The notes: a model not told the origin generated them from the sequence alone. Shown: positions 29,780 to 48,505, counted from the stretch's first letter. The stretch: 55,568 bases of DNA from Candidatus Woesearchaeota archaeon (GCA_016932755.1 JAFGCE010000085.1:1-55568), one strand, 5' to 3'. A program made the numbers and translations.

Positions 29780-30370
29780 ATGTATGTTGATATTGTTTTC
29801 CCGGATGGAAACGAAAAGGAATTTTTGGAAACAGCGGAAAAGCTGGGCTACAGCAGGCTGGTTTTTGTTTATGAAAAACAGATTCCAGAAGCCCCAAAAT
29901 CAAAAATCAAGATAATCACAGGGCTGGTTGCAGAGGAAAAAACAATCCAAAGGGCAAAAAACCTTGCAGGTTTGGTCCTTGTTAAGTCATCCAGAAATGA
30001 CAGGTGGGTTCTGGAAAAATCAAAAGCAGACATCCTGTTTGGGCTGGAAGAAGGGCAGAGAAAAGATTTTATGCACCACAGGGCTTCAGGATTGAACCAG
30101 ATACTGTGCAAGATTGCAAAACAAAAAGACAAGATGATTGCATTCTCTTTTTCAGCAATACTTAACTCTAAAGGAGAGAGGAGAGCCCAGCTTTTGGGCA
30201 AGATGATGCAGAACATCAAATTCTGCAGGAAATACAAAGTCAGGACAATACTCGCTTCTTTTGCAAAAACACCTTACGGCATGAGGGCGCCTAATGACCT
30301 TGTTAGTTTCGGTGTCAGCCTTGGGATGCATCCAAAAGAAGCAAAGGATTCAATGAGCTGGACAAAATGA
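29780..30370 (+). CDS. rnp3: RNase P protein component 3 (Rpp30/Pop family)
   Basis: From memory, the C-terminal half aligns with archaeal Rpp30 (KYKVR..L.S.A....R.P.DL.S.GV..GM....AK.S.S). 196 aa. Confidence 0.7.
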   Translation: MYVDIVFPDGNEKEFLETAEKLGYSRLVFVYEKQIPEAPKSKIKIITGLVAEEKTIQRAKNLAGLVLVKSSRNDRWVLEKSKADILFGLEEGQRKDFMHHRASGLNQILCKIAKQKDKMIAFSFSAILNSKGERRAQLLGKMMQNIKFCRKYKVRTILASFAKTPYGMRAPNDLVSFGVSLGMHPKEAKDSMSWTK

Positions 30371-31548
30371 ATAGCCTGTGGTTTTTTTTGCCTGGGATAC
30401 TCTATCTTGGCATTATAACATCTTATACAGACATAAAGTACGGCAAGATAAAGAACAGGGACATTGTTATTGGGATTTGTTATGCTTTTGCTGTTTATCT
30501 TGGGTTTATAATTTATTCACTAATAACAAAACAGGGAATAAATTATACCTATTTTCTTGAGCTTTGCACAAACACATTTTTTGCTTTGGCAATAGCTTTT
30601 GGATTGTGGTATTTCAAGCTCTGGTCTGCGGGAGACGGAAAATTATTTTTTGCTTTTGCTTTGCTGGTTCCTTTTGAGGTATATCAATATGGGAAGTATG
30701 ATTGGATTCCTTCCCTCACTTTGCTGTTTAATGTGTTTATCATAGGATTGTTTGCGATGCTTTTGCTGATACTCAAGAATGCAAGGATAAATGATTATGC
30801 AAAGATGTTAAAGACTTTTTTTAAGAATTTTTTTGGGCCTGTGAGGTTAGCAAAGAGCGCAGTTTCCTTGTTTGCAATGTTCTGGCTTATTGACATCGTA
30901 TTTTCTTATTTAGGATGGGAAGGAAACCGCGTTTTGAAATATTTATTTACATTTTTGATTCTTTCCCTGATTCCTGCATTAACCAGTACATTTCCAGCAG
31001 GGAACAAAAAATTCCAAATTGAGTACATTGAATTGTACATTTTTGGGGCAGTATCTGTTGTCAGGCTGGTCATAGACAAATCTGTTTATTCCAGTAGTTT
31101 TTTAGTGGAATTTATCATGATGCTCATTATCTGGAGGATTTTCAGGTCATTAATGAGGCATGGGTTAAGCTCTTTAAGCAAGGACGTGTTTTCTAAGGAA
31201 ATTTCTGTTAAAAAATTGAAACCCGGGATGATACTATCTGACAAAATAACTAAGGTTAAGAAACTAAGCAAAGACGAAATAAAAAAAGTGAAAGACAAAG
31301 AAATGATATTTGTGACTAAGGGGAATGCTTCTTATATCCTTGGGGGGTATAAATCCGCAAAAGAATATATTGATGTCGAATCTGAGGGGCTGGAGAAAGA
31401 GCATATAGAAAAAATAAGAAAAACCGGGCTTAAGAAAGTAAGAATCTCTACAACACTGCCGTTTGCCCCCCTTCTTTTCATGGGTGTTCTAGCGACATTG
31501 TTAATCAAAGGAAACATTTTAATATTAAGGTATTTTCTCTTGAAATAG
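30367..31548 (+). CDS. A24-family prepilin/preflagellin-type aspartic peptidase with a long C-terminal extension
   Basis: First catalytic Asp context SYTDIKYGKIKN and second Asp in WSAGDGKLFFAF (GxGDxK-like). Polytopic. About 150 aa of extra C-terminal sequence. Confidence 0.75.
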   Translation: MNSLWFFLPGILYLGIITSYTDIKYGKIKNRDIVIGICYAFAVYLGFIIYSLITKQGINYTYFLELCTNTFFALAIAFGLWYFKLWSAGDGKLFFAFALLVPFEVYQYGKYDWIPSLTLLFNVFIIGLFAMLLLILKNARINDYAKMLKTFFKNFFGPVRLAKSAVSLFAMFWLIDIVFSYLGWEGNRVLKYLFTFLILSLIPALTSTFPAGNKKFQIEYIELYIFGAVSVVRLVIDKSVYSSSFLVEFIMMLIIWRIFRSLMRHGLSSLSKDVFSKEISVKKLKPGMILSDKITKVKKLSKDEIKKVKDKEMIFVTKGNASYILGGYKSAKEYIDVESEGLEKEHIEKIRKTGLKKVRISTTLPFAPLLFMGVLATLLIKGNILILRYFLLK

Positions 31549-31558
31549 GGGTGATTAT

Positions 31559-31996
31559 ATGCCAGATTCCGGTAATCTTAGAATAGAAAACAATCAATTA
31601 ACCATCTCTGTTAATCCCAAGCTTTATCCTTTGGAGGCAGTTTATTCTGCAGCCTACGTTTTCATGGACAGGGCTTATATTGTTCTGGACGGTGACCCAG
31701 ACAAAGGAATACTTGTTAAAATGAAGCTCAAAAAAGAAGGTTCTTTGGAGACACTTGGAAATGAATTCAACAATGAGCTGCTTAATTATTCTGACTATCT
31801 AACTAGAGCAAAAGAGACAAAAATTATAAGAGAATTGCTACTGCAAAGAGCGATAATAACCAACGATTCTTCTGTAGCAGAAAGCATAGATTTTGATGAG
31901 CTTGAGAATCTTGAGGAAGAATTTTTAGATGACCCCGAGGGGATAGCTATCCCGTGGGAAGAAAAATATGGCAAAGATGAAAATAAACCTGAATAA
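31559..31996 (+). CDS. hxsD: HxsD-like protein (His-Xaa-Ser system accessory protein)
   Basis: From memory, the HxsD family is named for an LLNDYxLRE-like motif. Here: NEFNNELLNYSDYLTRAKE after an (N.K.Y..EA...A...F) N-terminal block. GGGGTGA SD. Sits next to HxsB- and HxsA-like genes. Confidence 0.6.
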   Translation: MPDSGNLRIENNQLTISVNPKLYPLEAVYSAAYVFMDRAYIVLDGDPDKGILVKMKLKKEGSLETLGNEFNNELLNYSDYLTRAKETKIIRELLLQRAIITNDSSVAESIDFDELENLEEEFLDDPEGIAIPWEEKYGKDENKPE

Positions 31997-32171
31997 TAAA
32001 TTCTATAAAAAGGAGGCAATAGAAAAAGCAATTGCGGCATTTAAGGAAGTGTGCCCTTGCAGAATTATTAATTGTTCTTTTGAGGTTGAGATCAATGCAG
32101 AAGATGATGCTGTTGCAGACGAGTTTTGTAATTTTGTCCTTGGCATAACAAAAGACAGCATGCTTTTCTAA
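31968..32171 (+). CDS. short HxsD-like paralog
   Basis: 67 aa. MKINLNNKFYKKEAIEKAIAAF aligns with VNPKLYPLEAVYSAAYVF of the preceding protein, and ADEFCNFVLG with NEFNNELLN. Overlaps the upstream gene by 29 nt. Confidence 0.4.
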   Translation: MAKMKINLNNKFYKKEAIEKAIAAFKEVCPCRIINCSFEVEINAEDDAVADEFCNFVLGITKDSMLF

Positions 32172-32173
32172 AA

Positions 32174-33553
32174 ATGGGGTATACTATAAACAATTACAGA
32201 TTCAGGGAACTTGATGATAACTATTTTATCACAACAGACAGCGGGAGCTGGATCGCTTTAAACAAGGATGAATTTAACAGCCTTAAATCCAAAAAAATTG
32301 ATGAAAAATTAAAGCAAAAGCTTTTGCAAAGGGAAATACTCTTAGATGAAACAAACGAAAATGAATTTGTTAATGACTTAAGGAAAAGGAACAGCTTTCT
32401 TTTCCAGGGAGCTTCTTTGCATATTGTTGTAGTTACTTTGAGATGCAACATGAACTGTGTCTACTGCCATGCAAGCTCAGTAAGCCAGGATAAGAAGGGG
32501 TTTGATATGGATAAGGACACTGCGAAAAAAACAGTAGACTTCATATTCCAGTCCCCAAGCCCAAATATAACAATAGAATTCCAGGGGGGTGAGCCACTTC
32601 TTAACTGGGAAATTCTCAAGTTTATTGTCGGTTACGCAAAGCAGAAAAACAGAACAGCAAACAAAAAACTTAGTTTTTCTGTTGTTACAAATCTTTCAAT
32701 GATGGATGAAGAAAAAATGCAGTATCTAATCAGGGAAAGGATCCTTGTTTGCACTTCTCTGGACGGGCCAAAAGAGCTGCATGACAAAAACAGGATATTT
32801 GCAAGTTCCAGCAATTATGGGCAGGTTGTTTTTTGGATTAAAAAATTCATGGAGGAATACAAAAAGAAAAAAATAGAGAATGCCCGGATAAATGCTCTGG
32901 TAACATTGACAAAAAAAAGCCTCGGATATCCTGAAGAGATAGTTGATGAATACGTTAACCTTGGGTTGAATTTTATCCATCTTAGATTCCTAAACAATCT
33001 CGGCGTTGCACAAAAAATATGGCCACAAATAAGCTATTCTGTTGAAGAATACCTTGCTTTTTGGGAAAAAGCCATGGGAAGAATAAAAAAACATCAAAAA
33101 GATGGAAAAGAAATCTCAGAAAGGATTGTTGACATAATAGCTCACAAGATAGGGACAAAATACGACCCAAATTATTTGGACCTGAGAAGCCCCTGCGGGG
33201 TTGCAATAGGGCAACTTGCCTACCATTATAATGGGGATGTTTACACATGTGATGAGGGCAGGATGGTAGGAGATGAAATTTTTCTTTTGGGCAATGTGAA
33301 AAAAGACAGCTATAAGGATGCAGTAACCTGTGACAAGGCTTGCGCTGTCCTGAATGCCTCAATAAATGACCAGTTTGTCTGCGATGCATGCGCGTACAAG
33401 CCTTACTGCGGGCTTTGCCCTGTCTGCAGTTTTTCAGAAGAAGGGAGCATAATTGGAAAGGTTAGCCAGTCTGCGAGATGCAGGATTTTCAAAAGGCAGT
33501 TTGACTGGGTTGTTAAGGAAAGATTTATAAATCAAAAAAAGGACAATAAATAA
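32174..33553 (+). CDS. hxsB: radical SAM/SPASM maturase, HxsB-like
   Basis: CNMNCVYC at 32444-32467, GGEPLL, and a C-terminal SPASM-type Cys cluster (CGV...YTCDEG...CDACAYKPYCGLCPVC...ARC). 459 aa. Confidence 0.8.
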   Translation: MGYTINNYRFRELDDNYFITTDSGSWIALNKDEFNSLKSKKIDEKLKQKLLQREILLDETNENEFVNDLRKRNSFLFQGASLHIVVVTLRCNMNCVYCHASSVSQDKKGFDMDKDTAKKTVDFIFQSPSPNITIEFQGGEPLLNWEILKFIVGYAKQKNRTANKKLSFSVVTNLSMMDEEKMQYLIRERILVCTSLDGPKELHDKNRIFASSSNYGQVVFWIKKFMEEYKKKKIENARINALVTLTKKSLGYPEEIVDEYVNLGLNFIHLRFLNNLGVAQKIWPQISYSVEEYLAFWEKAMGRIKKHQKDGKEISERIVDIIAHKIGTKYDPNYLDLRSPCGVAIGQLAYHYNGDVYTCDEGRMVGDEIFLLGNVKKDSYKDAVTCDKACAVLNASINDQFVCDACAYKPYCGLCPVCSFSEEGSIIGKVSQSARCRIFKRQFDWVVKERFINQKKDNK

Positions 33554-33564
33554 AAAGAGGTAAG

Positions 33565-33948
33565 ATGGCATCAGTATACAGCAGAATTCCAGTTTTTAAG
33601 AAAAAAATAAGCTCTTTTCTTGCAAAAGAAGACGGCAAGATTAGCAAGGAGAATTTGATTAAAGCAGGCATCTTGGCAGCAATCCTTTCTGCAGGAGCAG
33701 CTGCAAGCGCAAAACAGGTTTCTGCCAGTGTAAGCTGCGACCCGTCATGCAGTGGAAACCCAGACCCGCCTAATGAACTCAATGTAGATAAAGACCTTGA
33801 CCCTATCCATTATAATTTTTTGCGCTTGGGCAAGTCCGGAGGAGCTTTTCAGGGAACCCACGAGCACTGTATAGAATCCTGTCATGTAAGCCATTCCTCT
33901 CATGGCAGCCATGGCAGCCATGGCAGCCATAATTCAACAGGCTGGTGA
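33565..33948 (+). CDS. hxsA: His-Xaa-Ser repeat precursor-like protein (HxsA-like)
   Basis: 127 aa. Basic N-region plus hydrophobic AGILAAILSAGAAASA, two C-x2-S-C motifs, and C-terminal HVS-HSS-HGS-HGS-HGS-HNS-TGW. GAGGT SD. Confidence 0.75.
   Translation: MASVYSRIPVFKKKISSFLAKEDGKISKENLIKAGILAAILSAGAAASAKQVSASVSCDPSCSGNPDPPNELNVDKDLDPIHYNFLRLGKSGGAFQGTHEHCIESCHVSHSSHGSHGSHGSHNSTGW
33883..33936 (+). repeat. six in-frame His-Xaa-Ser codon triplets, including a perfect 3 x 9-bp tandem repeat (catggcagc, 33901-33927)
   Basis: Read directly from the sequence. Confidence 0.95.
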
Positions 33949-33970
33949 TTATTTTAACAGGCATAATAAA

Positions 33971-34543
33971 ATGGTATCCGAAAAAAGACCAACAATTCTT
34001 TTTTTTGTTTTAATCTTATTCGTTCTCATAGCTCTTGCTTTTTTGATTTATTTCTTTATGATGAGAGAGCCTGAACCAAAAATAAACGAGAGGGAGACAG
34101 TACAATTAGATATCATGATCTCCGAAACAAAAGGCATAACAGATTGCGAAGCCTTAAACTTCACTAATCAGAGTGTTAATTTCACAGATGAGCTATCCCC
34201 TGAAGAATGCAAAAGTTTGCTGTACTTACGAGAAATAGTTAAAAGAGGGGACTGCTCCTTGTCTCCTGCGGGCTACTTTGACGAGGAAATAATACTTGAA
34301 GGTGAAGTAACAAAATACTGCGAAGCCATAATTTCAGGGGATGCAAGCAAATGCAGCGATATAAATGTAGACACGATGAAGATTAGTTGCCGGTATTTTG
34401 CTGCAAGACTTGTCCAAGCGTACAGGGAAAAGAATGCAGCCCTGTGCGAATTAAATAAAGATGAGAGTTATACAGTACCTATTGAAAGCGAGGATTATTT
34501 TTTCCCATTAGATGTCTGCAAAGCATTGTCTGCAATGCCTTAA
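33971..34543 (+). CDS. N-terminally membrane-anchored Cys-rich protein
   Basis: ATG at 33971 (MVSEKRPTILFFVLILFVLIALAFLIYFFMM), then about 150 aa with 8 Cys. Last gene of the plus-strand Hxs string. Confidence 0.55.
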   Translation: MVSEKRPTILFFVLILFVLIALAFLIYFFMMREPEPKINERETVQLDIMISETKGITDCEALNFTNQSVNFTDELSPEECKSLLYLREIVKRGDCSLSPAGYFDEEIILEGEVTKYCEAIISGDASKCSDINVDTMKISCRYFAARLVQAYREKNAALCELNKDESYTVPIESEDYFFPLDVCKALSAMP

Positions 34544-36837
34544 TTCTCTTCATTGACTACCTCTATTTTTTTGGAAATATCATCTAACTTGCTGAACAAT
34601 TCCTTATTATCCAAGAATTTATTTTTTACTAAAAAAACTGGAAAATTTATTTCAAAATCAGAAGTTGATGAAGCATATTTTGAGAACATAAACGGGGAAA
34701 TTTCGCTAAAAAATCCTTTTGCCCCGGGCTTCCAATAAGGGTGCATGTTGAATACCTTGATTCCTGAATTTAGATAGCTCTGGAAATGTACCGTGCCTGG
34801 TTTTATCTGGAAAGGGTATGCTAATAATGAAGTATTTTCTGATTTTAAATTATGAAAAAATTCATAAGAAGCGTCCATATCCTCTTTTTTCTCTTGGGGA
34901 GAGCCAAAAATATAAGAGTAAGTCACTTTAAGATTAGAATTCCCGATAACAGGAATTATTTTCTTTATATGATCAATATACTCTTGTGGATTTTGGCTTT
35001 TATTGAAAAATTTTATGATGCTTGGGAATACGGATTCAATGCCTATAAAGAATTCGAGATTCTTGTTTTCTAATTTTTTAATTAGCTCTTTTGAAAAACT
35101 ATCAATCCTTGTCTGCAGACTGAATCTCATATCAAATTTGCCGAATAAGTTCAGCAAATTTTTCCCTCTTTCGCAACTAGGGTTAAATGACGAATCCTTA
35201 ATTTGTATTGCATTAATGTCATAAAGCTTGGATAATCTTGCCAGCTGGTTTTTAACATAATCCTCACTAAAGACGGTGCGGGGAGAGCAGGAATTATGCA
35301 TACAGAAACTGCATTTATTGGTGCATCCGACCGAAGTAAAGATTTCCGCCCTCTTGCCATAACTCTTGATGTTAAAACCCTCAAAGTCGTCATAGTCAAA
35401 AACAACCGGATTTTCCTCAGACGGTCTTCCGTAATTTATTTTGCGTGCATCTGTATTTTTTTTTAGGTAAATCTTTTCAATTAATTCAAGAACTTCCTTC
35501 CTTCCTGTGGCTATGTAGCTCTCATCCCCCTTGCAATTTCTGATTATGCAAGACAGAATTTTTGGCTCCAAAAAAAAGGAGTAAAAAATTATTTTCGTAT
35601 TTGAATCCTTCTTTAGCCTCTCTATTAGCTCAAGTGAGAATAGTATGTCTGATCTGGGTGTGGCAGAAAACACTAGTATTTTGGGGCTCATGCCAAGCAC
35701 TTTATTTTTTATTGAATCAATTGCTTTCTCTCTTTTTTCCCTTATCTCTTCCTCTTTTTTGGAGTCATAAAGCCCCCTTATGCAGGAAGAGAAATCAAGC
35801 CCTGTGCACCTGTCCTTGAATTTTTGTTTTGCTTCTTTCAGGAGCATAGCAAAATGAGGGAAGGGAGGTCTTCCGCTCGCATTTCTTTCTAGCACAGGTA
35901 TCCAAATGAATAGCGTGTCTTGGTGATTTTTTTTGGGCAATGTGGGGTAGTACTTAAGGTATTCTTTCCAATATCCCTCGCATTTATCGGAATACGCACA
36001 TTTTTCGCATTTGTAAATTTTTGTCCTTGCTATACTCTTCCTGTTTTTTTCAACTGATTTATTTATGAAGTCAGGAGCTATATGCTCGGTATGGAATGTT
36101 TGTGTTTCGTGTAGCTCGCTGATTTGGCTGTGGTACTCTTCATTTACATAGCATAAAGGGTAATACCTAACATGCCAGTGTCTTGCTTTTATTTCTCTTC
36201 CAAATTTTAAAAGATTGTTTACATAAGGCGAAACCTGCTCATAAGTGGGGACAACTTCCAAGAAATTATTCTTTGTAGCGCCATGGGTGGGATCCACGAA
36301 TATAAATTCAGAGTTCCGTATCCCCATACCAAAAATTAATTTGCCTATCTCCAGAAGATTTTTATAATTTTGTTTAACAATTGTTGTATTAGAGCCAATA
36401 TTTTTGAATCCAATCTCCTGCAGGTTTTTTATGCCTTCTCTTAGCTGTTCAAAACTTCCGGGAACTTGTGTTAATTTGTCATGGAGCTCTGCATTATGCC
36501 CGTGTATTGAAAAGACGATATGGCTGAGCCCGCATTCGATAATTTTTCTTGCAAAATCCTTTTTTGAGAACATTCTGCCGTTAGTGGCAATCATTATTGT
36601 CCGGAAATCAAGTTTTTTTGCAAATGCAATAATCCCTAAAATATCCTTCCTTATTGTAGGTTCTCCCCCGATAAATTCTATGTAATCTGCCCCGCTTTTT
36701 TTTGCATTAATAATATCCTTCTTCACTTCCTCGGTCGTTTTATCTTTTATCTTCTGTCTTTTGTTTTCATTGCAGCAGAAAATACATTTGTTGTTGCATG
36801 AATACCCCATAAGTATTACTGTTTTCTTAATTTTCAT
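34540..36837 (-). CDS. dual radical SAM protein (HxsC-like-type module + class-B-like second radical SAM domain)
   Basis: CNNKCIFC at 36775-36798 with a module-ending CEKCAYSDKCEGYWKEY. Second core VGCTNKCSFC at 35302-35325, preceded by a Rossmann-like segment. ATG at 36837 preferred over the TTG at 36858. Confidence 0.8.
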   Translation of the reverse strand: MKIKKTVILMGYSCNNKCIFCCNENKRQKIKDKTTEEVKKDIINAKKSGADYIEFIGGEPTIRKDILGIIAFAKKLDFRTIMIATNGRMFSKKDFARKIIECGLSHIVFSIHGHNAELHDKLTQVPGSFEQLREGIKNLQEIGFKNIGSNTTIVKQNYKNLLEIGKLIFGMGIRNSEFIFVDPTHGATKNNFLEVVPTYEQVSPYVNNLLKFGREIKARHWHVRYYPLCYVNEEYHSQISELHETQTFHTEHIAPDFINKSVEKNRKSIARTKIYKCEKCAYSDKCEGYWKEYLKYYPTLPKKNHQDTLFIWIPVLERNASGRPPFPHFAMLLKEAKQKFKDRCTGLDFSSCIRGLYDSKKEEEIREKREKAIDSIKNKVLGMSPKILVFSATPRSDILFSLELIERLKKDSNTKIIFYSFFLEPKILSCIIRNCKGDESYIATGRKEVLELIEKIYLKKNTDARKINYGRPSEENPVVFDYDDFEGFNIKSYGKRAEIFTSVGCTNKCSFCMHNSCSPRTVFSEDYVKNQLARLSKLYDINAIQIKDSSFNPSCERGKNLLNLFGKFDMRFSLQTRIDSFSKELIKKLENKNLEFFIGIESVFPSIIKFFNKSQNPQEYIDHIKKIIPVIGNSNLKVTYSYIFGSPQEKKEDMDASYEFFHNLKSENTSLLAYPFQIKPGTVHFQSYLNSGIKVFNMHPYWKPGAKGFFSEISPFMFSKYASSTSDFEINFPVFLVKNKFLDNKELFSKLDDISKKIEVVNEEN

Positions 36838-37747
36838 TTTTATCTTTCCCGAATTCAATCAAGATGCCCGAAAATTTATCCCTTTTTTCAATAATGTCTT
36901 GGCTTGCATTTGGGATACTTATTGAATCTTTGCTTAAGGTTAATTTTTTGGTTATAAGGAGGGTTTTTCTAAATTTTTCGGAGGGCATATTCAAATTTTT
37001 TCCAGTGCCATTCCCCCCAAACTGGAGACACTTGCTAAATTTGACAGTTCCTGCCGAGAAATAGTTGTTGAATGTTATCTGGAACCTTGTGTCGTGAAAC
37101 AGCCGTATTCCATGCGAGCAGTCAAACCAAAGCAGGATTGGCTTGGACAGCCATCCTGAAATTTTATCTGCAAATGGCTGATTTATTTTTTCAATAAATG
37201 CCAGGATTTCCTTGTTGTATTTGATAGTTTTTTCGCAGCCGAAACTGCATGGCTGGTGAAAGCTCAATGAGAGGTTATGGGGATACAAAAGCCAGTTGCA
37301 GTAGCAGGACTTAATTCCTTTGAGTTTTTTTAGTAAATGTTCGTGCGCTTCCTCCTTATTTTTTTTGATTAGACTGGCTTGGTCATTTATGCAGCAGAGA
37401 GGATAGCCAAGAGCTTTTGCAAAGTCGAGCATTTCTTTTTCTGTTTGCTTTTCGTATTTGTTTTCAGGGTCATTCAGGGAGTAGTATTCTGCCAGTTCCT
37501 TGTCTTTGGAAATATATGCTGGAAGCAACAAGCCTCTTCCCTTTCCAAAAGAAACATGTACATCAAAAAGTTTGAAAATCTTGGCAAACTTTTCTTTATT
37601 TTCTTTGTGCACATGCATCTTAGCCAAGTTTTTGATTCCGCTTATTACAGCATAACTATTTGCGCTTATTGGGAAAAAAGATATGACTTTGTCATGTATC
37701 TTCTTGTATTTCTTTAGTTGCTGCTCGCTGCATCTTGTCTTGTCCAT
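36827..37747 (-). CDS. hypothetical Cys-motif protein (GYPLCC ... HQPCSFGCE)
   Basis: 306-aa ORF embedded in the coupled operon. Conserved-looking Cys/His motifs; no family named. Confidence 0.6.
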   Translation of the reverse strand: MDKTRCSEQQLKKYKKIHDKVISFFPISANSYAVISGIKNLAKMHVHKENKEKFAKIFKLFDVHVSFGKGRGLLLPAYISKDKELAEYYSLNDPENKYEKQTEKEMLDFAKALGYPLCCINDQASLIKKNKEEAHEHLLKKLKGIKSCYCNWLLYPHNLSLSFHQPCSFGCEKTIKYNKEILAFIEKINQPFADKISGWLSKPILLWFDCSHGIRLFHDTRFQITFNNYFSAGTVKFSKCLQFGGNGTGKNLNMPSEKFRKTLLITKKLTLSKDSISIPNASQDIIEKRDKFSGILIEFGKDKNEN

Positions 37748-37750
37748 TTT

Positions 37751-38620
37751 TTATTTTCCCGTGTCTTTCACTGGCATGAACTCATTTTCGCCAAAAAAAT
37801 CTAGATAGCTTTTCCATATTCCAGAGCATTCGCTCTTTTTTTGACACAAACTGCACTTTTCAGCAAAAACAACTGATGAAGAGTCCGCAGTGACCCCTTT
37901 TGAATACTCCCACAGCCCTTTTGGCAGGGTGCAGTGGGGGAAATGGAACAGCCATACTTTATATCCTTTTGAAATCAATTTTTTTATTGGAGCCTCGAGA
38001 ACTTCAGATAGCTTAGTTATCCTCTCAGCTACAAATTTGGCATTCTTGCCGGCAGTTCCTGTCAATTTCGGGTTCATAATAACTATTGAATTAAAGTTGC
38101 GGCTTTCAAAGTTATCAATTATAAAATCTGCAATTTCGTTGAAATGCGCGTAATTCATCTTGTGGAGCAGAATCCTTAGCTCAATCTTCACATTGTTTTT
38201 GGCAAGATTTTTTATTCCCGCTATCTTGTACTTGAAACTTGCAGGGTTTCTTGCTATTGAGTTTTGTATTTTAGGATTATGCCCGTATAAAGTCGTGATT
38301 ATCTTTAGGTTTTTTATCTTTGAGATTCTTTCAGTGAATTTGTTATAATAAAATGACTGGGCGTTTGTCAGAATCCCAATCTCATGCGGGTTCTTTTTTT
38401 CAATATACTTTAAAATTTCCAGCAAATCCTTCCTTAAAGTAGGCTCCCCTCCATTTATCTCTATATGGCTGTGAGACTTCAAAATTTCATCAGCCTCCTT
38501 TTTGATATCTTCAAGAGAGGGGTTTTCCATTCCGTATCTTCTTGAGACAGGGCAGGATATGCAGTTGTCATTGCAATTGTATACCACAGGCACAAATGTT
38601 TTATTCTTTATTTTGTTCAT
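37751..38620 (-). CDS. radical SAM protein (single module of the locus-specific paralog family)
   Basis: CNDNCISC at 38552-38575, GGEPTLRKDL, C-terminal CSLCQKKSECSGIWKSY. Confidence 0.8.
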   Translation of the reverse strand: MNKIKNKTFVPVVYNCNDNCISCPVSRRYGMENPSLEDIKKEADEILKSHSHIEINGGEPTLRKDLLEILKYIEKKNPHEIGILTNAQSFYYNKFTERISKIKNLKIITTLYGHNPKIQNSIARNPASFKYKIAGIKNLAKNNVKIELRILLHKMNYAHFNEIADFIIDNFESRNFNSIVIMNPKLTGTAGKNAKFVAERITKLSEVLEAPIKKLISKGYKVWLFHFPHCTLPKGLWEYSKGVTADSSSVVFAEKCSLCQKKSECSGIWKSYLDFFGENEFMPVKDTGK

Positions 38621-40823
38621 TCTTTATTTCTCCGCAAACACTTTTTAAAAAACATAGACTGCACAATCTATTTTTTTCATCTAGGAAACAGTCTTGGTTT
38701 CCGAGATTATTAAATTCTCCTAAAAAGTTGATATACTCAGCGAGAGAAGGGGCATAGCTTTCATAATCTTCAAAATACTCGGGCTCAAAGAACTCAAAAT
38801 GAAGGGGCACTTTTTTATCTTCAGCAAAGGAAATTATGCCTGGCAGGTATTTCTTAAATGAGGACGGCGAAAAACAGAGCTTTTTTGCATTTAAAACGCC
38901 TCTTCCTTTTGGGGCAAATTTCTGGATATTGAACTTATTGACCCCGATTTCATGAAATTCCTTTATAACAGGCAAGATGTCATTCAGGTTGTCCTTAATA
39001 CAGACATAATTTATCCTGACATTAACCCATTCTCTGACAAGATTTATTATGCCTCTTCTTGTTTCTTTGTACGCCCCTTTTACCTGTGTTATTCTGTCGT
39101 GGGTCTGCTCGCTTCCATGAACAGCGACTATTGCACTATTTAATCCGCTCTTGGCTGTGGCTCTAGCGAATTCTTTATTGGAAAATCTCCTGCCGTTTGT
39201 TACAACTCCAATTCTCTGTATTTTCCTGTCAGCGAAAAATCTGATTAGCTTTAGCAGGCTCTTTGCGTATATTGTCGGCTCACCGCCTGTAAAAAATATT
39301 TCTTCGGGCTTCTTTTCCAGTATTTTTTTAACCTGGAACAAAACTTCTTCTTCATTTTTTTTGGCTTTGCTATCCCTATTATTGTCCCAGCAAAAAATGC
39401 AGTTGTTGTTGCAGCTATGCCCGAGGATTATATTTATTGATTTTGGCATGTGTTTTTGTTTCTTTAGCTGCAGGTATCTTTTAATAATAACTGATAAATC
39501 AAAGAAAAATAACGAATAAAGAAACCTTTCTTGAGCTTTTTCAGGAAGGAAAAACATTCTGTTTTTTTCTATCCTTGCCATATTTATCCCTTCCAGTTCT
39601 TTCACTTCTTTCCTGAAATCCTGGAGAAACTCAGATTTGAACAGCGATTTGTACTCAGGAAACCTTATGTATTGCCGGCATGCCAATTCGCATAAGAGGT
39701 AATACCTCTTTTGGCTTTTCTCATCAAGTATAACCCCCTCCGCAGACAGTTCATTAGTTCTGTACCTAACCTTATTAAATATATAAGAGCAGGAATATCT
39801 CCCGATGCCGAAACAGCTGCTTTCCATTCTATTGTCAAAAGAATACTCAAAGTCAAACGAATGCCTTTTTTTTGACAGCAAAAACCATGGAGAGGCTGTC
39901 CTTATGTTGTCCAACAAGGGTCTGTGTAATTCATAATCCTTAACTTTCTCTTTAATGAGCCGGGATAATATTTTGATTTTTTTATTAAGCTGGTTGTAAT
40001 AAAATTTAACATCACCCTTAAAATTATTATCAAGGTATTGATTTGTCGGCTGGAGGGGGTAAAGGGAGATTGAAGACGGGTTAAGTTCGACAAGTTTCTT
40101 TAGGCTTTCAAAAACAGTATTGGCTGAATCCTTTTTAAGACCGACGATTAAATCCAGGCCAACATGCTTTATTCCATACTCCTTCACAAGCCTAACCATC
40201 TTTTTTATTTTTTCATAATCTTGATAAGACCTGTTTTCGGATTCAAGAACCTCTTTATCGAGTGACTGAACCCCCAATGATATAGAGTTAATGCCGTATT
40301 TTTCCAATATCCTCAATTTTTCCTGGTTCAGGCTGTCGGGATTGCTTTCAAATGTTTTTTTCCCTTTCTTTTCAAATTCAAAATTGGCGAATAGGTTTTT
40401 CAGGAGCACATCAATCTGCTTTTCAGATAATATGCTGGGGGTTCCTCCGCCTATATAGAGGCTTTTGAACTTTATGCCTTTGAATACGCTGCTGAAGCAT
40501 TTCATTTGACCAACCAAACCCGAAACATATTCATTTATCTCGTTTTCAGAAGAAACCTTTTTTGAGATGTACATGCAGTATTTGCATTTGCTCCTGCAGA
40601 ACGGAATATGGAGGTAGAATTGAAGGCTATCCCTGGATTTCCCAGATTTTATTTCTGCTGCTCTTTCGCTCCATAACCCTTTTATTTCATGCAAACTAAA
40701 ATTTTTCTTTGGCATGACCAAATCCAGGATATCAGGCAGCAAAAAATTATTTTTGTATCCACTTTTTTTAAGCAAATCAGCAACTTCCCCAAAAAATTTT
40801 ATTTTTTGATGTGCAAACTTCAT
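38601..40823 (-). CDS. fusion of a HemN/HemW-like radical SAM domain and a second radical SAM module
   Basis: N-terminal LHIPFCRSKCKYC (40575-40598), YIGGGTPS, ISLGVQS (HemN-like). C-terminal CNNNCIFC (39390-39413), GGEPTIY, ending CSLCFLKSVCG. Confidence 0.8.
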   Translation of the reverse strand: MKFAHQKIKFFGEVADLLKKSGYKNNFLLPDILDLVMPKKNFSLHEIKGLWSERAAEIKSGKSRDSLQFYLHIPFCRSKCKYCMYISKKVSSENEINEYVSGLVGQMKCFSSVFKGIKFKSLYIGGGTPSILSEKQIDVLLKNLFANFEFEKKGKKTFESNPDSLNQEKLRILEKYGINSISLGVQSLDKEVLESENRSYQDYEKIKKMVRLVKEYGIKHVGLDLIVGLKKDSANTVFESLKKLVELNPSSISLYPLQPTNQYLDNNFKGDVKFYYNQLNKKIKILSRLIKEKVKDYELHRPLLDNIRTASPWFLLSKKRHSFDFEYSFDNRMESSCFGIGRYSCSYIFNKVRYRTNELSAEGVILDEKSQKRYYLLCELACRQYIRFPEYKSLFKSEFLQDFRKEVKELEGINMARIEKNRMFFLPEKAQERFLYSLFFFDLSVIIKRYLQLKKQKHMPKSINIILGHSCNNNCIFCWDNNRDSKAKKNEEEVLFQVKKILEKKPEEIFFTGGEPTIYAKSLLKLIRFFADRKIQRIGVVTNGRRFSNKEFARATAKSGLNSAIVAVHGSEQTHDRITQVKGAYKETRRGIINLVREWVNVRINYVCIKDNLNDILPVIKEFHEIGVNKFNIQKFAPKGRGVLNAKKLCFSPSSFKKYLPGIISFAEDKKVPLHFEFFEPEYFEDYESYAPSLAEYINFLGEFNNLGNQDCFLDEKNRLCSLCFLKSVCGEIKNEQNKE

Positions 40824-42751
40824 TTTTTGTAGATTTTTCCGTTTGTTACTTCAAGATAATCCCCTGTTTTTATTAGGTCTGTACAGCCGTCTACTCCAAC
40901 TAAGCAAGGAATTTCCAGCTCCCTGCACACTATTGCAGCGTGAGATATCAAACCGCCTCTTTCTGTGATTACACCCCTGCAGACAGCCATGGCAGTAACA
41001 AGGGAGGGAGAGGTTTCTTCAGCTACAAGAATATCCCCGGGATTTACCTCTTCCTTGCGCCCAACAAAATCAATGATTTTTGCTTTTCCCTCAAAGTTTC
41101 CAGGTGAAGCTATTTTTCCATTCAGAGGAAATCTTCTTTTTTTTCCTGTAGGGACCTCTTTCTTTGCTTCCCTGATTTTTTCTGCCTCTCTGATTATCTG
41201 GGGGATGGTTTTTTCTAGTATAACTCTGAATGGGAGTTTACATAGGGGATTAATGTCGCTTTTTGTTTCCATGTAAAACAATCTTGCATAGTTATGTGAT
41301 ACTACCTCAATAAAATAATTGTTTGCGTCATGCAGCCACAGCAGTTTTTGCAGGTTGTTGACAACAGGAACGTTGGATTCTAATTTTTGCCCGCTTTTTT
41401 TTTGCAATTTCATCCTTAATTCCATAGCGGATTTGCCAGGCATTTTTTTTATCAACCCGGGCTGCGAAAGTATATTAGAGTATAATGCTTTTCCGCTTTT
41501 GAAAATAGAAAGAAGATTCATGCTGGTAAGAGTCAATTTATCAGGCCTAAAAATATCCGGTCTGCTCTCCTCATTTATTTTGAGTTTTTCCTGCAAATAT
41601 TCCTTGAGTGCAAAAATCAGGAACCTGTTGATTAGGTAGTCAATAAAAAACAAAGTTATCTGGAACCTCTTGAATTTGATGATATAGTCTTTCGCACTTT
41701 TCTCCTTTTCCAGCGAGGTTTGGGCTTGCTTTTCCTGAAACTTAAGAATTTTTTCAATAAACTTGTCTATTATCTTTTTATCTAATATTTTTATATAAGT
41801 TTCCTCTATAATTTTAGAATACGAGCCGTAATCTATGAGTATATCAGAGGACTTTTTTTCCATGCTCTGTATTCTTGTCCTGAAACCCAGCTTTTCCAGC
41901 AATAAGTTAAGGTTGCTTAAGGATACATCTTCAACATGCAGCCCATGTTTTTCTGCACTTCGGAATATAAAATGCTCTCTTACCCTTAGCGGTGCAGTAA
42001 TCTTCCTCATCTGGGTTATCCATACTTTTCCGTTTCTGACAACAAATTCAAGGTCAGCATTTTCCCAACCAAACTCATTTATTTCCTTGGGCAGGTTTTT
42101 GAAGCTGTTTATGAATCCATAATTTTTAACTTTCTTGTCGTTCAAAAGCAAAAATCCATTTTTTAGCGCAAAAATTTTAGGATTTATCCTGCCGAGCTCC
42201 ACATCAGATGAAGAGCCTTCAGCAAATTCAACAAAAAGAGAGCTGTCTTTTTTATTGTAAAATGCAACGCCTCCCAAATCAGGTTCTATGTATTCCTGGA
42301 TTATTACCCCCATTCCTGTTTTCTGCTTGATTCCCTTTGTTCTAATGTATTCTGCAGCCCTGGGGTTAAACTGGCTGTGCCATACTTTCTTGATATTTTC
42401 CGGTATATGTTTTGCAGGGCACTTAATTGAGTCAAACAATCCTGCAAAACTGTGCTTTTCAGTATCCTCAAAAAAATATGAAGACCGCAGAATCGGATTT
42501 TTTATGTTAAGATTGATTAACCCCTTGTTTATCTCGCTTAATAGATTGTCGTCAAACATGTTTTCAAATATAATTTTCTTCATCTGGTTTTTGTCTAGGT
42601 TACTAAAATCCGGTTTTTTCAAATGATCAAAAAATACAGAACTGTCTAAAACAAGGAAATTCGGGCAAAGGTTTTTTTTGTCTAATCTTATTAGATTTTC
42701 AGCCTTCGCCCCGATTCCTGTTTTTTTATTCTTGATTATTATGCTGTGCAT
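40820..42751 (-). CDS. PEP-utilising enzyme family phosphotransferase (N-terminal PPDK-type ATP-grasp, C-terminal swivel-His domain)
   Basis: N-terminal GIGAKAENLIRL...FLVLDSSVF. C-terminal PGDILVAEETSPSLV...ERGGLISHAAIVCRELEIPCLVG. ATGA overlap with the downstream gene. Confidence 0.8.
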   Translation of the reverse strand: MHSIIIKNKKTGIGAKAENLIRLDKKNLCPNFLVLDSSVFFDHLKKPDFSNLDKNQMKKIIFENMFDDNLLSEINKGLINLNIKNPILRSSYFFEDTEKHSFAGLFDSIKCPAKHIPENIKKVWHSQFNPRAAEYIRTKGIKQKTGMGVIIQEYIEPDLGGVAFYNKKDSSLFVEFAEGSSSDVELGRINPKIFALKNGFLLLNDKKVKNYGFINSFKNLPKEINEFGWENADLEFVVRNGKVWITQMRKITAPLRVREHFIFRSAEKHGLHVEDVSLSNLNLLLEKLGFRTRIQSMEKKSSDILIDYGSYSKIIEETYIKILDKKIIDKFIEKILKFQEKQAQTSLEKEKSAKDYIIKFKRFQITLFFIDYLINRFLIFALKEYLQEKLKINEESRPDIFRPDKLTLTSMNLLSIFKSGKALYSNILSQPGLIKKMPGKSAMELRMKLQKKSGQKLESNVPVVNNLQKLLWLHDANNYFIEVVSHNYARLFYMETKSDINPLCKLPFRVILEKTIPQIIREAEKIREAKKEVPTGKKRRFPLNGKIASPGNFEGKAKIIDFVGRKEEVNPGDILVAEETSPSLVTAMAVCRGVITERGGLISHAAIVCRELEIPCLVGVDGCTDLIKTGDYLEVTNGKIYKK

Positions 42752-44531
42752 TTTTTTGTCCTAGAATAATCTTGCTTCCAGGCTGGTCCATGGAAATATA
42801 TTTTTCATAATTGCTTTTTGCGACATCTATCAGGTTTTTTGGGGGTATGGTTGTTGTTATTATGCTAACCCCTTTTCTAAAAAGGGCTTTCGGATAAAGC
42901 AAGGCACTTCTTCCGAAAATAAAAACCATCTTTGCCTGTAGGGCATTTCTTATTATGCTTTCAAATGTGCCATTAGGGATGGTAGAGCCTGATAGCACCA
43001 GCACATCACTTTTTTTTATTATATCTTCTTTTACTTCCTTGTAAAAAAACGCCTCCTTGCCCGTTTCCTTCTTGAATTTAGCATATTCCTTTTCTATTTG
43101 CTGTTTTCTTTTATGGTCTGTAAAAAATCCCCTGTCAAAGATGTGGATTTCGGCTGCTTTTGAATATTCAACAAACCCATGCAGTGCGAATCCAACTTGG
43201 GAGATTACAGGATTTTCCGCGCTTTTTTCTTGGGGGTATTCTTCCAGTGTGTTTTTTTTGATTATGCTGCTTTTAATCAGGGCTGCGGAATTAAGCGCTG
43301 CTGTATAAAGGCTGAATAATCTTGCATTGTTCCTGAAGGGAATTGTGAACCCGTCCTTTTTTAGGTTTAGTTCTGAATCAACATAAAAATCCCTTAACCA
43401 TTCATTCTCCAGTTCTTTCCATCCGCCTATGCACAGGCATGTCCCGCAAAATCCCTTGTCATTGACAGCAACAGGATAAAATGAAAGCAAAGCCTCCTTG
43501 ATTAATATTTTTGAAACGCTTAACTCTTCAAAAAGCTCTTTGGCTGTTGCTTTCAATATATTGCCTGAAATACCCTCTTCTGTTTCAAGTTTGCTTAGTT
43601 TTTCAAATATTGGCTTTTGTTCAACCATAGCGATATGCTTTTTTATAGTATTAAACTCCTTATTTCCTAATTTTTCGGGATATTCCTTCCACGGACCCTC
43701 ACAAATCGGGTTATAACCGCAGCCATCGCACTGAGGGAATTTTGCTTTCCCTTTCTCCTTCCTTTGCTTTGTAAAGCTGTCTGTGTTCTGGTGCTTCTGC
43801 CCTCGTATTTCTGTTTCTGGAATCACTTTCTCAGAAATGTAAGCCTCATAACCAGCCATCTGGCAGTAAGGCATTGCCTCTGCCATAACTTTTTTGCCTG
43901 CATCAATCCCAATCTGAAGCCCATTGTGAATGTAAGGTGCTGCCAGAGATATTGAAGGGACAATACTGTCAAAATTATTCCATGCATTCCCCATTGGGTG
44001 GACAAAAGCAAACTGGAACTGGTCAACATTAAGATTCACAAGCAGTTTTGCTATATCAGGCAGATTCCTGTAGTTCGGCTTTACAACAACTGTGTTTGTA
44101 AGGACATACTGCCCAAGTGATTTCAGGTTTTTTATTCCCTGAACAGTCTGTCTGAAGCTTCCAGGAGCTCTTGTAAGGAAGTCATGCTGTTCTGCGCAAT
44201 AGCCGTGTATTGCAGGGGAAAACTCTGTTGCCCCTGCTTTTATTGCTTTTTTGCAGAAATTAAGCGATGAGAACATCCTGCCGTTTGTCTGGATTTGTAT
44301 TGTTTTATAGCCAAGACTTTTTGCATATTCAACAATATCAAGAAAATCTTTTCTTATAGTAACCTCTCCGCCTGTAAGAACAACTCCTTCACATCTTTTT
44401 CTTGAATCTTCCAAATCTTTTTTTATCCCTTCCAGAGACCGGTTTCCTTTGCATTTGTTGTCTGCTTGGACACAGAATCTGCAGTTATTGTTGCAAATAA
44501 ATCCAGTCTTGATATCCACCCTTTTTCCCAT
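42726..44531 (-). CDS. radical SAM module fused to a DUF4213/DUF364-like (putative chelation, Rossmann-like) domain
   Basis: CNNNCRFC at 44472-44495, GGEVTIRKDF, CDGCGYNPICEGPWKEY. C-terminal AALNSAAL...DVLVLSGSTIPNGTFESII...VFIFGRSALLYPKALFRKGVS resembles the DUF364 pattern. Confidence 0.7.
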   Translation of the reverse strand: MGKRVDIKTGFICNNNCRFCVQADNKCKGNRSLEGIKKDLEDSRKRCEGVVLTGGEVTIRKDFLDIVEYAKSLGYKTIQIQTNGRMFSSLNFCKKAIKAGATEFSPAIHGYCAEQHDFLTRAPGSFRQTVQGIKNLKSLGQYVLTNTVVVKPNYRNLPDIAKLLVNLNVDQFQFAFVHPMGNAWNNFDSIVPSISLAAPYIHNGLQIGIDAGKKVMAEAMPYCQMAGYEAYISEKVIPETEIRGQKHQNTDSFTKQRKEKGKAKFPQCDGCGYNPICEGPWKEYPEKLGNKEFNTIKKHIAMVEQKPIFEKLSKLETEEGISGNILKATAKELFEELSVSKILIKEALLSFYPVAVNDKGFCGTCLCIGGWKELENEWLRDFYVDSELNLKKDGFTIPFRNNARLFSLYTAALNSAALIKSSIIKKNTLEEYPQEKSAENPVISQVGFALHGFVEYSKAAEIHIFDRGFFTDHKRKQQIEKEYAKFKKETGKEAFFYKEVKEDIIKKSDVLVLSGSTIPNGTFESIIRNALQAKMVFIFGRSALLYPKALFRKGVSIITTTIPPKNLIDVAKSNYEKYISMDQPGSKIILGQKNAQHNNQE

Positions 44532-44606
44532 GCAGTTTTTAAATTACTGAATGTTAATAAATTTATTGATAATCTAGTATATAATCCATATATCAAATAT
44601 CACAAG

Positions 44607-44616
44607 CTTTATATAT
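44607..44616 (+). promoter_or_regulatory. TATA-like box in the divergent intergenic region
   Basis: 'ctttatatat' 45-54 nt upstream of the ATG at 44661, with AGAGGT SD at 44652-44657. A second TATA-like 'tatatac' on the minus strand (about 44576-44590) faces the radical SAM operon. Confidence 0.4.
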
Positions 44617-44660
44617 GAAAATAGGGTAAAATTACCTATTTTATTTAAAAAAGAGGTAAA

Positions 44661-47243: not shown

Positions 47244-47245
47244 GA

Positions 47246-48505
47246 ATGTTCAAAAAGTCGCAAGTCACAGTGTTTATCATAATAGCGATTGTGATTATAG
47301 TTATGTTTGGTTTGGGGTATTATGCAATGATTTCAAGGATAACTGAAAAAGGAGAGGAGCAGCTCTTGAGGCAGCAGATAAGCGCAGAAAAAATAAACCC
47401 CCTGAAGGATTACATTACTTCTTGCTTCAGCCTTGCCTCAGCAGACGGGCTTGAGCTTCTGGGAAAACAGGGAGGGTACATTTACAAAAGCCAGGGAGGG
47501 ATAATAGACGACCCTTTTGAAAGCCAGTCAGGGCAGGAATACATAGAATATGAGCAGACAAAGGTTCATTACGGAATTTATGCGCCAATCTCCAATGTAG
47601 GCATGATATTTTTTGCTCAGACCCCGGAATATCCATGGAGCACGTTCCCGAAAGTCTACAACCCTCTAAATCCAGATGAAATTGTTTATGAGGAAAAATA
47701 TGACGGCTATTACGGAAGGAACAAGCTTCCTCCGTTTGAAAAGCCTAAAGAAGGCTCAATACAGGAGCAGCTTGAGGCATTTACAACAAACAGCACATTA
47801 ACCTGCATAGACTGGACAAATTTCCAGCAGCAGGGGCTTGGCATAAAAACAGAAGAGCCGAATGTTTCTGTTACTTTCACAGCGGCAGATGTTACATTTA
47901 CCCTGAACTGGCCGATAGAAGTCACAGACAGCGGTACAGGCGCTGTCACAGACATTAATGAATTTGCAGTTGTTTATCCTGTAAGACTGAGGAAGATTTA
48001 TGATTTTGCAGCCCAGATAATGGACAATGATGTGGGGGACATAACCTACAGCATAGCAGCCACATCCTTGGACGGGCTTACAACTTCAGCAGTAATCCCG
48101 GATATTTTTGGGATGGACGACCTTATTGTAATACATGATGAAGAGTCAAGGATAATAGACAAGGAATACCAATTCAGGTTTATGAGAAAGAACAGGGCTC
48201 CTGCGCTTTATTATGTTGACAACAATACAGACATGGAAGGACCTGTCTGCGTTGACTCACTTGTTCAGTTTGTAGAGCCGGACAAGCTTAACATCGTTGA
48301 TTCATGCGATGACAACTCATTTGAGCTTCAGCTAAAAGCAATAGACCCTGATGAGGATAAGCTTGAGTTTACTTTTGACAGGCAGCTTCCCTATGAAATA
48401 AAGCCTGCAGACATTTATGTAAGGGCATTCAGGATAAAAATCACTGTCAGCGACGGAGAATACAAGGACTGGCAGGATGTTCAAATACCCACAAAAGAGG
48501 AATAG
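47246..48505 (+). CDS. pilin-like (class III signal) surface protein
   Basis: MFKKSQVTVFIIIAIVIIVMFGLGYYAM N-terminus. C-terminal cadherin/Ig-like segment (NRAPALYYVD...ITVSDGE). 2-nt gap to the upstream gene. Confidence 0.6.
   Translation: MFKKSQVTVFIIIAIVIIVMFGLGYYAMISRITEKGEEQLLRQQISAEKINPLKDYITSCFSLASADGLELLGKQGGYIYKSQGGIIDDPFESQSGQEYIEYEQTKVHYGIYAPISNVGMIFFAQTPEYPWSTFPKVYNPLNPDEIVYEEKYDGYYGRNKLPPFEKPKEGSIQEQLEAFTTNSTLTCIDWTNFQQQGLGIKTEEPNVSVTFTAADVTFTLNWPIEVTDSGTGAVTDINEFAVVYPVRLRKIYDFAAQIMDNDVGDITYSIAATSLDGLTTSAVIPDIFGMDDLIVIHDEESRIIDKEYQFRFMRKNRAPALYYVDNNTDMEGPVCVDSLVQFVEPDKLNIVDSCDDNSFELQLKAIDPDEDKLEFTFDRQLPYEIKPADIYVRAFRIKITVSDGEYKDWQDVQIPTKEE

Follow-up and report, generated by a model that had tools for sequence, protein, structure and literature searches.

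We describe a gene on the minus strand of a 55,568-nt stretch of DNA from a Candidatus Woesearchaeota archaeon (GCA_016932755.1 JAFGCE010000085.1:1-55568, referred to here as the window). The encoded protein of 643 aa (P0001) belongs to a new and rare subfamily of dikinases of the rifampin phosphotransferase (RPH) type, which possesses a middle domain of its own and is tied to an archaeal His-Xaa-Ser (HXS) system. Judged by sequence criteria, it should be an active RPH-type dikinase, its chemistry being predicted from that of its homologues. The genomic context makes it somewhat probable that the enzyme phosphorylates the HxsA-like peptide encoded in the same locus or a form of this peptide modified by radical S-adenosylmethionine (SAM) enzymes. 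It might even be the first RPH-family dikinase acting on a ribosomal peptide, O-phosphorylating Ser residues in the (His-x-Ser)n tail of HxsA, which we regard as possible and propose tentatively. We know of no RPH-family enzyme for peptide phosphorylation, and a literature search returned no paper pairing 'PEP-utilizing' enzymes with 'RiPP'. The bacterial HXS system (HxsA/B/C/D) was reportedly defined in silico by Haft & Basu in 2011. The window corresponds to contig 30 of a 0.93-Mb genome that is about 90% complete and carries archaeal markers. Similar proteins are encoded on contigs from genomes labelled Woesearchaeota, Pacearchaeota or Nanoarchaeota, and the host is thus a DPANN-type archaeon.

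The intact open reading frame (ORF) extends on the minus strand from an ATG at 42749-42751 to a stop codon at 40820-22, and the start codon is backed by an MHxII N-terminus that is kept in the 15 members of the family alignment. Pfam assigned residues 54-196 to PPDK_N, the ATP-grasp domain of pyruvate phosphate dikinase (PPDK) (E 1e-19), and residues 570-635 to the PEP-utilizers mobile domain (PEP, phosphoenolpyruvate; E 9e-23). The original prediction of a PPDK-type ATP-grasp, an unassigned middle region and a C-terminal mobile His domain was thereby borne out, and both motifs that it quoted were found in the protein, GIGAKAENLIRL at residues 12-23 and GGLISHAAIVCRELEIPCLVG at residues 599-619. 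The gene and its parts, including structural models obtained with AlphaFold2 (AF2) and their predicted local distance difference test (pLDDT) scores, are as follows.

40820..42751, minus strand: gene of the RPH-like dikinase, 643 aa (P0001), from ORF, translation, Pfam and family alignment
41987..42751, minus strand: ATP-grasp domain, residues 1-255, with invariant residues and an AF2 pLDDT of mostly 80-93
41132..41986, minus strand: middle domain, residues 256-540, presumed to bind the acceptor; family-specific, with a mostly helical AF2 model
40820..41131, minus strand: swivel phosphohistidine domain, residues 541-643 plus stop codon (Pfam PEP-utilizers, E 9e-23)
40940..40942, minus strand: codon of His604, the predicted phosphocarrier, invariant in 15/15 members; codon verified
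41327..41332, minus strand: His474-Asp475 of the W-L-[H/R]-D motif, located by hhalign against RPH-like proteins

Alignment of the 15 family members (A1) showed that G14, K16, R89-S90-S91, E95, S108, Q152, E235, Q247, R249 and His604 are invariant. By hidden Markov model (HMM) alignment to RPH-Lm (5fbs), K16 corresponds to Lys22, R89 to Arg117 and S108 to Thr136, and His604, which lies within GGLISH 39 residues before the C-terminus, matches the catalytic His in the GGLMTH motif of RPH-Lm as well as that of PEP synthase. The importance of Lys22, Arg117, Thr136 and the catalytic His in RPH has been shown by mutagenesis (PMC4844700). Every ATP-site residue mutated in RPH-Lm is invariant across the 15 members, and E235 and Q247 are taken to be Mg ligands, matching those of RPH-Lm. 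The swivel domain aligns with the swivel domains of both PEP synthase (8a8e) and RPH (5fbs), and the PEP-synthase-like motif GGLTSH is kept in most members of the family.

Structure prediction from a single sequence was unusable (pLDDT 33), and the model used was therefore built from a 16-sequence alignment. It reached a pLDDT of 79 and a predicted TM score (pTM) of 0.71, with disorder limited to residues 413-460 and 529-538. When Foldseek was queried with the whole-chain model, the top matches were six RPH-Lm entries (E 8.6e-26 to 6.5e-15, over 813-853 alignment columns; best chains 8.6e-26 to 1e-24, over 819-853 columns), compared with E values of 1e-10 for PPDK and 1e-8 for PEP synthase; HpeI (9goj) was also among the matches. 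Since the whole-chain match (E 1e-25) is far better than that to the isolated RPH ATP-grasp domain (2e-10) or to isolated swivel domains (about 1e-5), the middle region is suggested to contribute to the similarity with RPH. The domain order of rifampicin phosphotransferases, which had been proposed from the sequence, thus agrees with the Pfam positions, with a full-length hhalign comparison and with the extent of the Foldseek alignments.

NCBIfam models for PEP synthase, PigC/RedH and Rph matched the protein within the two shared domains exclusively, and all of them scored far below their cut-offs. The best PEP synthase model reached 130 bits against a cut-off of 598, TIGR01418 112 against 740 and TIGR01828 64 against 843. 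The Rph models NF041857 and NF000283 gave 92.5 bits (cut-off 999) and 58.7 bits (cut-off 1700), and the PigC and RedH models, matching both shared domains, 110 bits (cut-off 1300). In a maximum-likelihood tree of the ATP-grasp domain, the protein clustered with 15 relatives in a single group (support 100/97) that is nested within RPH-like proteins. The PEP synthase of the same genome grouped with PEP synthases, and its PPDK formed a long separate branch. The clustering with genuine PEP synthases or PPDK that would have spoken against the original proposal was thus not seen. A Pfam scan of the 643-aa protein found no PEP-utilizers_C barrel (PF02896, the PEP/pyruvate-binding TIM barrel), a domain present in the PPDK (L003) and the PEP synthase (L002) of the host. 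The PPDK of the host genome is complete, with three domains and 893 aa. The host PEP synthase is apparently cut by the assembly: its N-terminal part (L005, G000:C47) ends at a contig edge within the swivel domain and its C-terminal part (L002, G000:C9) begins at another contig edge.

The middle region of about 285 aa contains the invariant or near-invariant residues F263, D275, K361, L473, D475 and Y488. It had no Pfam match over about residues 256-540. Of the checks that had been envisaged for this region, structure prediction gave a mostly helical model, and a profile search with five sequences found no match in the Protein Data Bank (PDB). Full-length hhalign against RPH-like proteins gave 100% probability over 634 columns, and in this alignment the W-L-[H/R]-D motif falls on an invariant L-R-E. 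Judged by its position, this L-R-E would correspond to Arg666-Glu667 of RPH-Lm, residues that position the phospho-His (PMC4844700). Among the 15 family members, 13 have H, R or K at column 474, and D occupies column 475 in 14; the dyad is His474-Asp475 in the window protein and Arg or Lys followed by Asp in eight other members. Homology of this presumed acceptor domain to the rifampin-binding domain is plausible, though marginal at the sequence level.

The family is rare. An exhaustive search of 1.8 billion representatives yielded about 15-20 full-length relatives (counted as clusters) of 630-670 aa, and shorter forms consisting of middle plus His domain or of the ATP-grasp domain. Querying the word-indexed homologue search with either the family alignment or the middle region by itself gave no new members, the sole close relative found being P0002. 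A scan of genome contigs keyed on the swivel motif returned 80 loci, none of them a family member, plasmid and phage collections contained swivel-domain matches only, and PADLOC holds no model for the dikinase, HxsD or HxsA. Among 401 sampled genomes of the phylum, HxsB was detected in 50 (41 of which pass the curated cut-off) and the middle domain in three, all of them among the 50. With the window's own genome left out, this amounts to 2/49 versus 0/351, or roughly P=0.015, with the limitation that related genomes are not independent.

In the window, the gene is part of a minus-strand operon (34540-44531) of six genes with seven radical-SAM cores, among them four HxsC/HxsC4-like, one HemN-like and one B12-type core. 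Its ORF overlaps the upstream neighbour by 26 nt and the downstream neighbour by 4 nt (ATGA). Both direct neighbours encode radical-SAM proteins, in accordance with the placement originally noticed. Genes for RNase P p30, an A24 peptidase, HxsD-like, HxsB and HxsA-like proteins are located on the plus strand and converge on the operon.

42726..44531, minus strand: 601-aa fusion of an HxsC4-like radical SAM with DUF364, operon gene 1; 26-nt overlap with the dikinase gene
38601..40823, minus strand: double radical-SAM protein of 740 aa with a HemN-like and an HxsC-like part, sharing 4 nt (ATGA) with the dikinase gene
37751..38620, minus strand: HxsC-like radical SAM, 289 aa (TIGR03977, 173 bits, cut-off 267.9)
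36827..37747, minus strand: DUF483-like protein, 306 aa (weak Pfam DUF483 match)
34540..36858, minus strand: HxsC4-like radical SAM plus a second, B12-type-like radical SAM, 772 aa (Pfam, NCBIfam)
33565..33948, plus strand: HxsA-like precursor, 127 aa, ending in HVSHSSHGSHGSHGSHNSTGW, with six HxS triplets; candidate acceptor
32174..33553, plus strand: HxsB radical SAM/SPASM maturase (TIGR03978, 462.8 bits, cut-off 370)
31559..31996, plus strand: HxsD-like small protein (TIGR03976, 46.6 bits, cut-off 50)
30367..31548, plus strand: A24 prepilin-type peptidase (Pfam), part of the conserved archaeal Hxs core
44532..44660, no strand given: AT-rich divergent intergenic region of 129 nt with TATA-like runs, upstream of the operon (sequence inspection)

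The HxsC-like and HxsD-like proteins are related to the bacterial ones but divergent, with best scores of 173 bits (cut-off 267.9) and 46.6 bits (cut-off 50). A gene for a 213-aa membrane protein accompanies the six-gene module within 33902-44531.

The tie to the HxS peptide system proved stronger than could be seen from the window. HxsC-like radical-SAM genes with overlapping reading frames surround the dikinase gene in all four full-length contexts that were read (the window, L001, and the metagenome contigs L098 and L099, which were found with a degenerate DNA pattern of the family motif). In three of the four, namely the window, L098 and L099, the dikinase gene has beside it a gene for an HxsA-like peptide that carries about six HxS repeats. 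The closest relative (L001, 40% identical; GCA_964398575.1, genome G408) lies behind RNase P p30 together with five HxsC-like radical-SAM genes showing the same overlaps, and the HxsD and HxsB genes of G408 are located on a 2.2-kb contig. In L099, a 660-aa dikinase follows seven radical-SAM genes, five of them HxsC-like, and an A24 peptidase gene, with an HxsA-like peptide at the head of the locus. In L098, radical-SAM genes flank the dikinase on both sides and an HxsA-like peptide is encoded upstream. Finally, genome G107 encodes a split form of 372 aa (middle plus swivel domain, with the His kept) whose gene has an HxsA-like gene as direct neighbour on one side and an A24 peptidase gene on the other; the 13 kb that follow contain no radical-SAM gene. 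The A24 peptidase gene is thus directly adjacent to the dikinase gene in both L099 and G107. As a separate observation, G107 carries four HxsA-like paralogues, two HxsB and eight HxsC-like radical-SAM genes (C11 2520-18582; C9 965-3845; C2; C12), and its split dikinase adjoins one of the HxsA-like paralogues on a contig other than that of the main array.

Specific partners accompany the dikinase. Orthologues of the N-terminal modules of the 601-aa and 772-aa proteins, 48-71% identical, occur in every full-length dikinase context, whereas the best matches in Hxs loci without the dikinase are 25-35% identical. The 772-aa protein has orthologues in L001 and L099 (52-58% identical), and orthologues of the 740-aa double radical-SAM protein (about 41% identical) are encoded directly downstream of the dikinase in L001 and L098. 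Comparison with the same-genus genome G001 showed identical synteny of RNase P p30, A24 peptidase, HxsD, HxsB and HxsA, followed by genes for surface proteins of 860 and 419 aa. In G001, a single unrelated radical-SAM gene of 385 aa (L106, G001:C1 10387-12280) lies between HxsA and the surface-protein genes; the six-gene module is absent, as is any HxsC-like gene from the entire genome. Relative to G001, a replacement at the Hxs locus is clear. Because close orthologues of the 601-aa and 772-aa proteins accompany only the dikinase and G001 keeps the core without the module, we regard the dikinase as part of a co-inherited, optional tailoring module. Signs of recent insertion were not found: module and Hxs core differ little in GC content (0.370 and 0.382, respectively), and flanking repeats and tRNA genes are lacking.

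The conserved archaeal core consists of A24 peptidase, HxsD, HxsB and HxsA (window 30367-33948; L106, L111, L117, L119, L120 and L131), and the A24 peptidase gene adjoins HxsD-HxsB-HxsA in G001, L111, L117, L119, L120 and L131. The HxsC-like arrays beside this core vary. In L099 and L120, HxsC-like enzymes carry a fused DUF483 domain, and fusions in the related arrays of L110, L117, L119, L120 and L099 include a B12-binding radical SAM plus SAM methyltransferase protein (1127 aa), radical SAM plus methyltransferase, and additions of an arginase-family domain or of DUF483. This suggests that the HxsC-like arrays are a hypervariable tailoring module. The varied fused domains would fit a variable set of peptide modifications, phosphorylation being one of them.

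On this basis we propose the following mechanism. The ATP-grasp domain would load the beta-phosphate of ATP onto His604 of the swivel domain, with release of AMP and Pi. The loaded swivel would then dock on the family-specific middle domain, where W-L-H474-D475 may help to position the phospho-His, and the phosphate would be handed to a hydroxyl of the bound acceptor. This hydroxyl could be that of a Ser in the C-terminal (H-x-S)6 tract of HxsA, or one that is made only by the HxsC-like radical-SAM enzymes. The dikinase would act as a member of the optional six-gene tailoring module beside the conserved core of A24 peptidase, HxsD, HxsB and HxsA. If serines are phosphorylated, the phosphate might stay and give a poly-His/phospho-Ser tail for binding of metals or surfaces. 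It might instead act as a leaving group, so that dehydroalanine or His-to-Ser-C-beta (histidinoalanine-type) cross-links are formed in concert with the HxsC-like enzymes.

Several points weigh against the phosphorylation of HxsA. The route by phosphorylation and subsequent elimination, which had been brought up at the outset, gained no support. In class III/IV lanthipeptide and thioamitide pathways, Ser/Thr residues of a ribosomal peptide are O-phosphorylated and the phosphate is then eliminated, by kinases with protein-kinase or APH (aminoglycoside phosphotransferase) folds and a dedicated lyase. The window operon differs in containing neither such a kinase fold nor a lyase: Pfam and NCBIfam revealed no lyase-like domain or lyase-type partner among the operon proteins, and no other phosphate-handling partner is encoded nearby. 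For the middle regions alone, hhalign recovered the same 64-column alignment with the RPH-like middle, W-L-[H/R]-D again falling on L-R-E, at a probability of only 2.7% (P=0.017). Because this comparison is marginal and the PDB search gave no match, the assignment as an acceptor domain leans chiefly on where the region lies in the chain and on the Foldseek ranking obtained with the whole chain. Furthermore, tracts of 6-8 HxS repeats together with two to four HxsC-like genes occur in four genomes without the dikinase. The length of the HxS tract was accordingly rejected as a predictor of the dikinase, and since such tracts exist without it, the enzyme is not required in general to mature them. 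The bacterial HXS system likewise needs no kinase (PMC13128918), and the characterised members of the RPH family all act on small molecules, namely on rifampin, on phenolics and, in prodigiosin synthesis, on the bipyrrole aldehyde (PMC4844700, PMC12167813, PMC13534948).

These substrates also speak for an alternative, that of an RPH-type dikinase whose acceptor is a small molecule, cofactor-like or a metabolite, which the radical-SAM module makes or uses. The operon contains HemN-like, B12-type-like and DUF364 ('chelation') domains, and such domains occur in cofactor pathways as well. However, Pfam and NCBIfam detected no genes for small-molecule biosynthesis or scaffolds in the operon, and the split enzyme of G107 is located between HxsA-like and A24 genes with no radical-SAM gene in the following 13 kb. 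In addition, the radical-SAM partners are relatives of HxsC, which acts on HxsA in E. coli (PMC13128918). We therefore consider a small-molecule acceptor possible but rather unlikely.

The enzyme could also serve self-protection by phosphorylating the finished HxsA-derived product and keeping it inert in the cell, as RPH does to rifampin. RPH is an inactivating kinase (PMC4844700), and the dikinase gene is an optional addition rather than a core component. On the other hand, the gene is translationally coupled within a maturase operon and co-inherited with specific radical-SAM orthologues, so that a biosynthetic step fits better than an immunity gene; evidence for toxicity of an HxsA product to the producer is lacking as well. 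Self-protection is thus an unlikely explanation. Transfer of the phosphate to another protein of the system, such as a radical-SAM enzyme, HxsD or the A24 peptidase, in a relay like that from Enzyme I to HPr, appears very improbable. The swivel domain is shared with Enzyme I of the phosphotransferase system, which phosphorylates a protein, and the GGLTSH motif of most family members is PEP-synthase-like, but with Pfam and NCBIfam neither an HPr-like partner nor an HPr-binding or PEP-binding domain of the Enzyme I type was detected, and the domain order and best fold matches are those of RPH. A role in central carbon metabolism as a divergent PEP synthase or PPDK, to which PEP synthase models at the top of the NCBIfam list might point, can be dismissed almost with certainty, because the protein falls into a separate clade on the RPH side, has RPH as its top Foldseek match and lacks the PEP/pyruvate-binding domain, because the host already encodes a normal PPDK and PEP synthase, and because the family is missing from nearly all relatives, a same-genus genome included. 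Phosphorylation of the HxsA-like peptide or of its radical-SAM-modified form continues to be the reading that we favour.

Some further features of the window and of related genomes were recorded. At the N-terminus of the HxsA-like protein (33565-33700), a conserved Lys-rich leader, FKKKISSFLAKEDGKISKENLIKAG, precedes a hydrophobic stretch, and the same Lys-rich leader is found in L098, L099, G001 and G107. Taken together with the ever-present A24 peptidase, this arrangement resembles a signal of class III (prepilin type). No family match was obtained for the proteins of 860 and 419 aa encoded at 44661-48505; their counterparts in G001 (44-47% identity) are syntenic, directly after the Hxs locus. 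A scan for sigma-70 promoters and terminators gave results at or below chance, as a bacterial-type scan that is unsuited to archaea. Multiple swivel domains were seen in a genome of the same taxonomic family, where a 4768-aa ORF (L151, G006:C154, 2821-17127, minus strand) combines one N-terminal PPDK_N with ten PEP-utilizers swivel domains, between which lie divergent spacers without a match to the Hxs-linked middle domain. Genomes G005, G008, G017 and G036 have 9-18 swivel-domain matches each, and multi-swivel proteins of 1800-2650 aa were also among the results of the representative search.

Compared with RPH-Lm (5FBS, 5FBT, 5FBU, 5HV1; PMC4844700), the window protein has the same order of ATP-grasp, (presumed) acceptor domain and C-terminal swivel His, and Lys22, Arg117 and the catalytic His are kept, with Thr136 replaced by Ser108. 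It differs in its middle domain, which is about 285 aa instead of about 430 aa long and has no significant similarity on its own, and in the presumed counterpart of the Arg666-Glu667 dyad, which is His-Asp in the window protein and Arg-Asp in other family members. Moreover, it is encoded in a peptide-maturation operon and not as a stand-alone resistance gene. HpeHI, CreHI and PpsAB belong to the same RPH superfamily and consist of a separate ATP-grasp protein and a second component with acceptor and swivel domains (PMC12167813), a split mirrored by the 372-aa protein of G107 with its middle and His domains. These enzymes act on phenolics in catabolic pathways and have an acceptor domain that is rifampin-binding-like, in contrast to the proposed role in Hxs maturation in DPANN-type archaea. 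The prodiginine ligases PigC, RedH and HapC show that the RPH-like architecture is used in biosynthesis, where phosphorylation turns a substrate oxygen into a leaving group for condensation (PMC13534948). By analogy, they offer a precedent for a transient phosphate, although their substrates are small molecules and they have no radical-SAM or peptide context.

Of the HXS systems described, more than 99.8% are made up of the four Hxs proteins, with no kinase or phosphotransferase mentioned (PMC13128918). The window resembles them in HxsB, which scores above the curated cut-off, and in its HxsD-like, HxsC-like and HxS-repeat HxsA-like genes. The archaeal systems differ from these four-gene systems by the A24 peptidase in the core, the variable HxsC-like array and, rarely, the dikinase. 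In E. coli, HXS has an antiphage function, and N-terminal processing and a +8 Da change, with no phosphorylation, were reported (PMC13128918).

A published survey placed 99.7% of HXS systems in Pseudomonadota and listed no peptidase (PMC13128918). In contrast to this near-exclusive placement, our data show that DPANN-type archaea commonly have Hxs systems, found in 50 of the 401 genomes sampled, with a different core and a highly variable module. An extra ATP-dependent step in archaea would provide a handle on which HxS residues are addressed by Hxs chemistry. A member of the RPH superfamily dedicated to peptide maturation would widen the known chemistry both of this superfamily and of ribosomal peptide tailoring.

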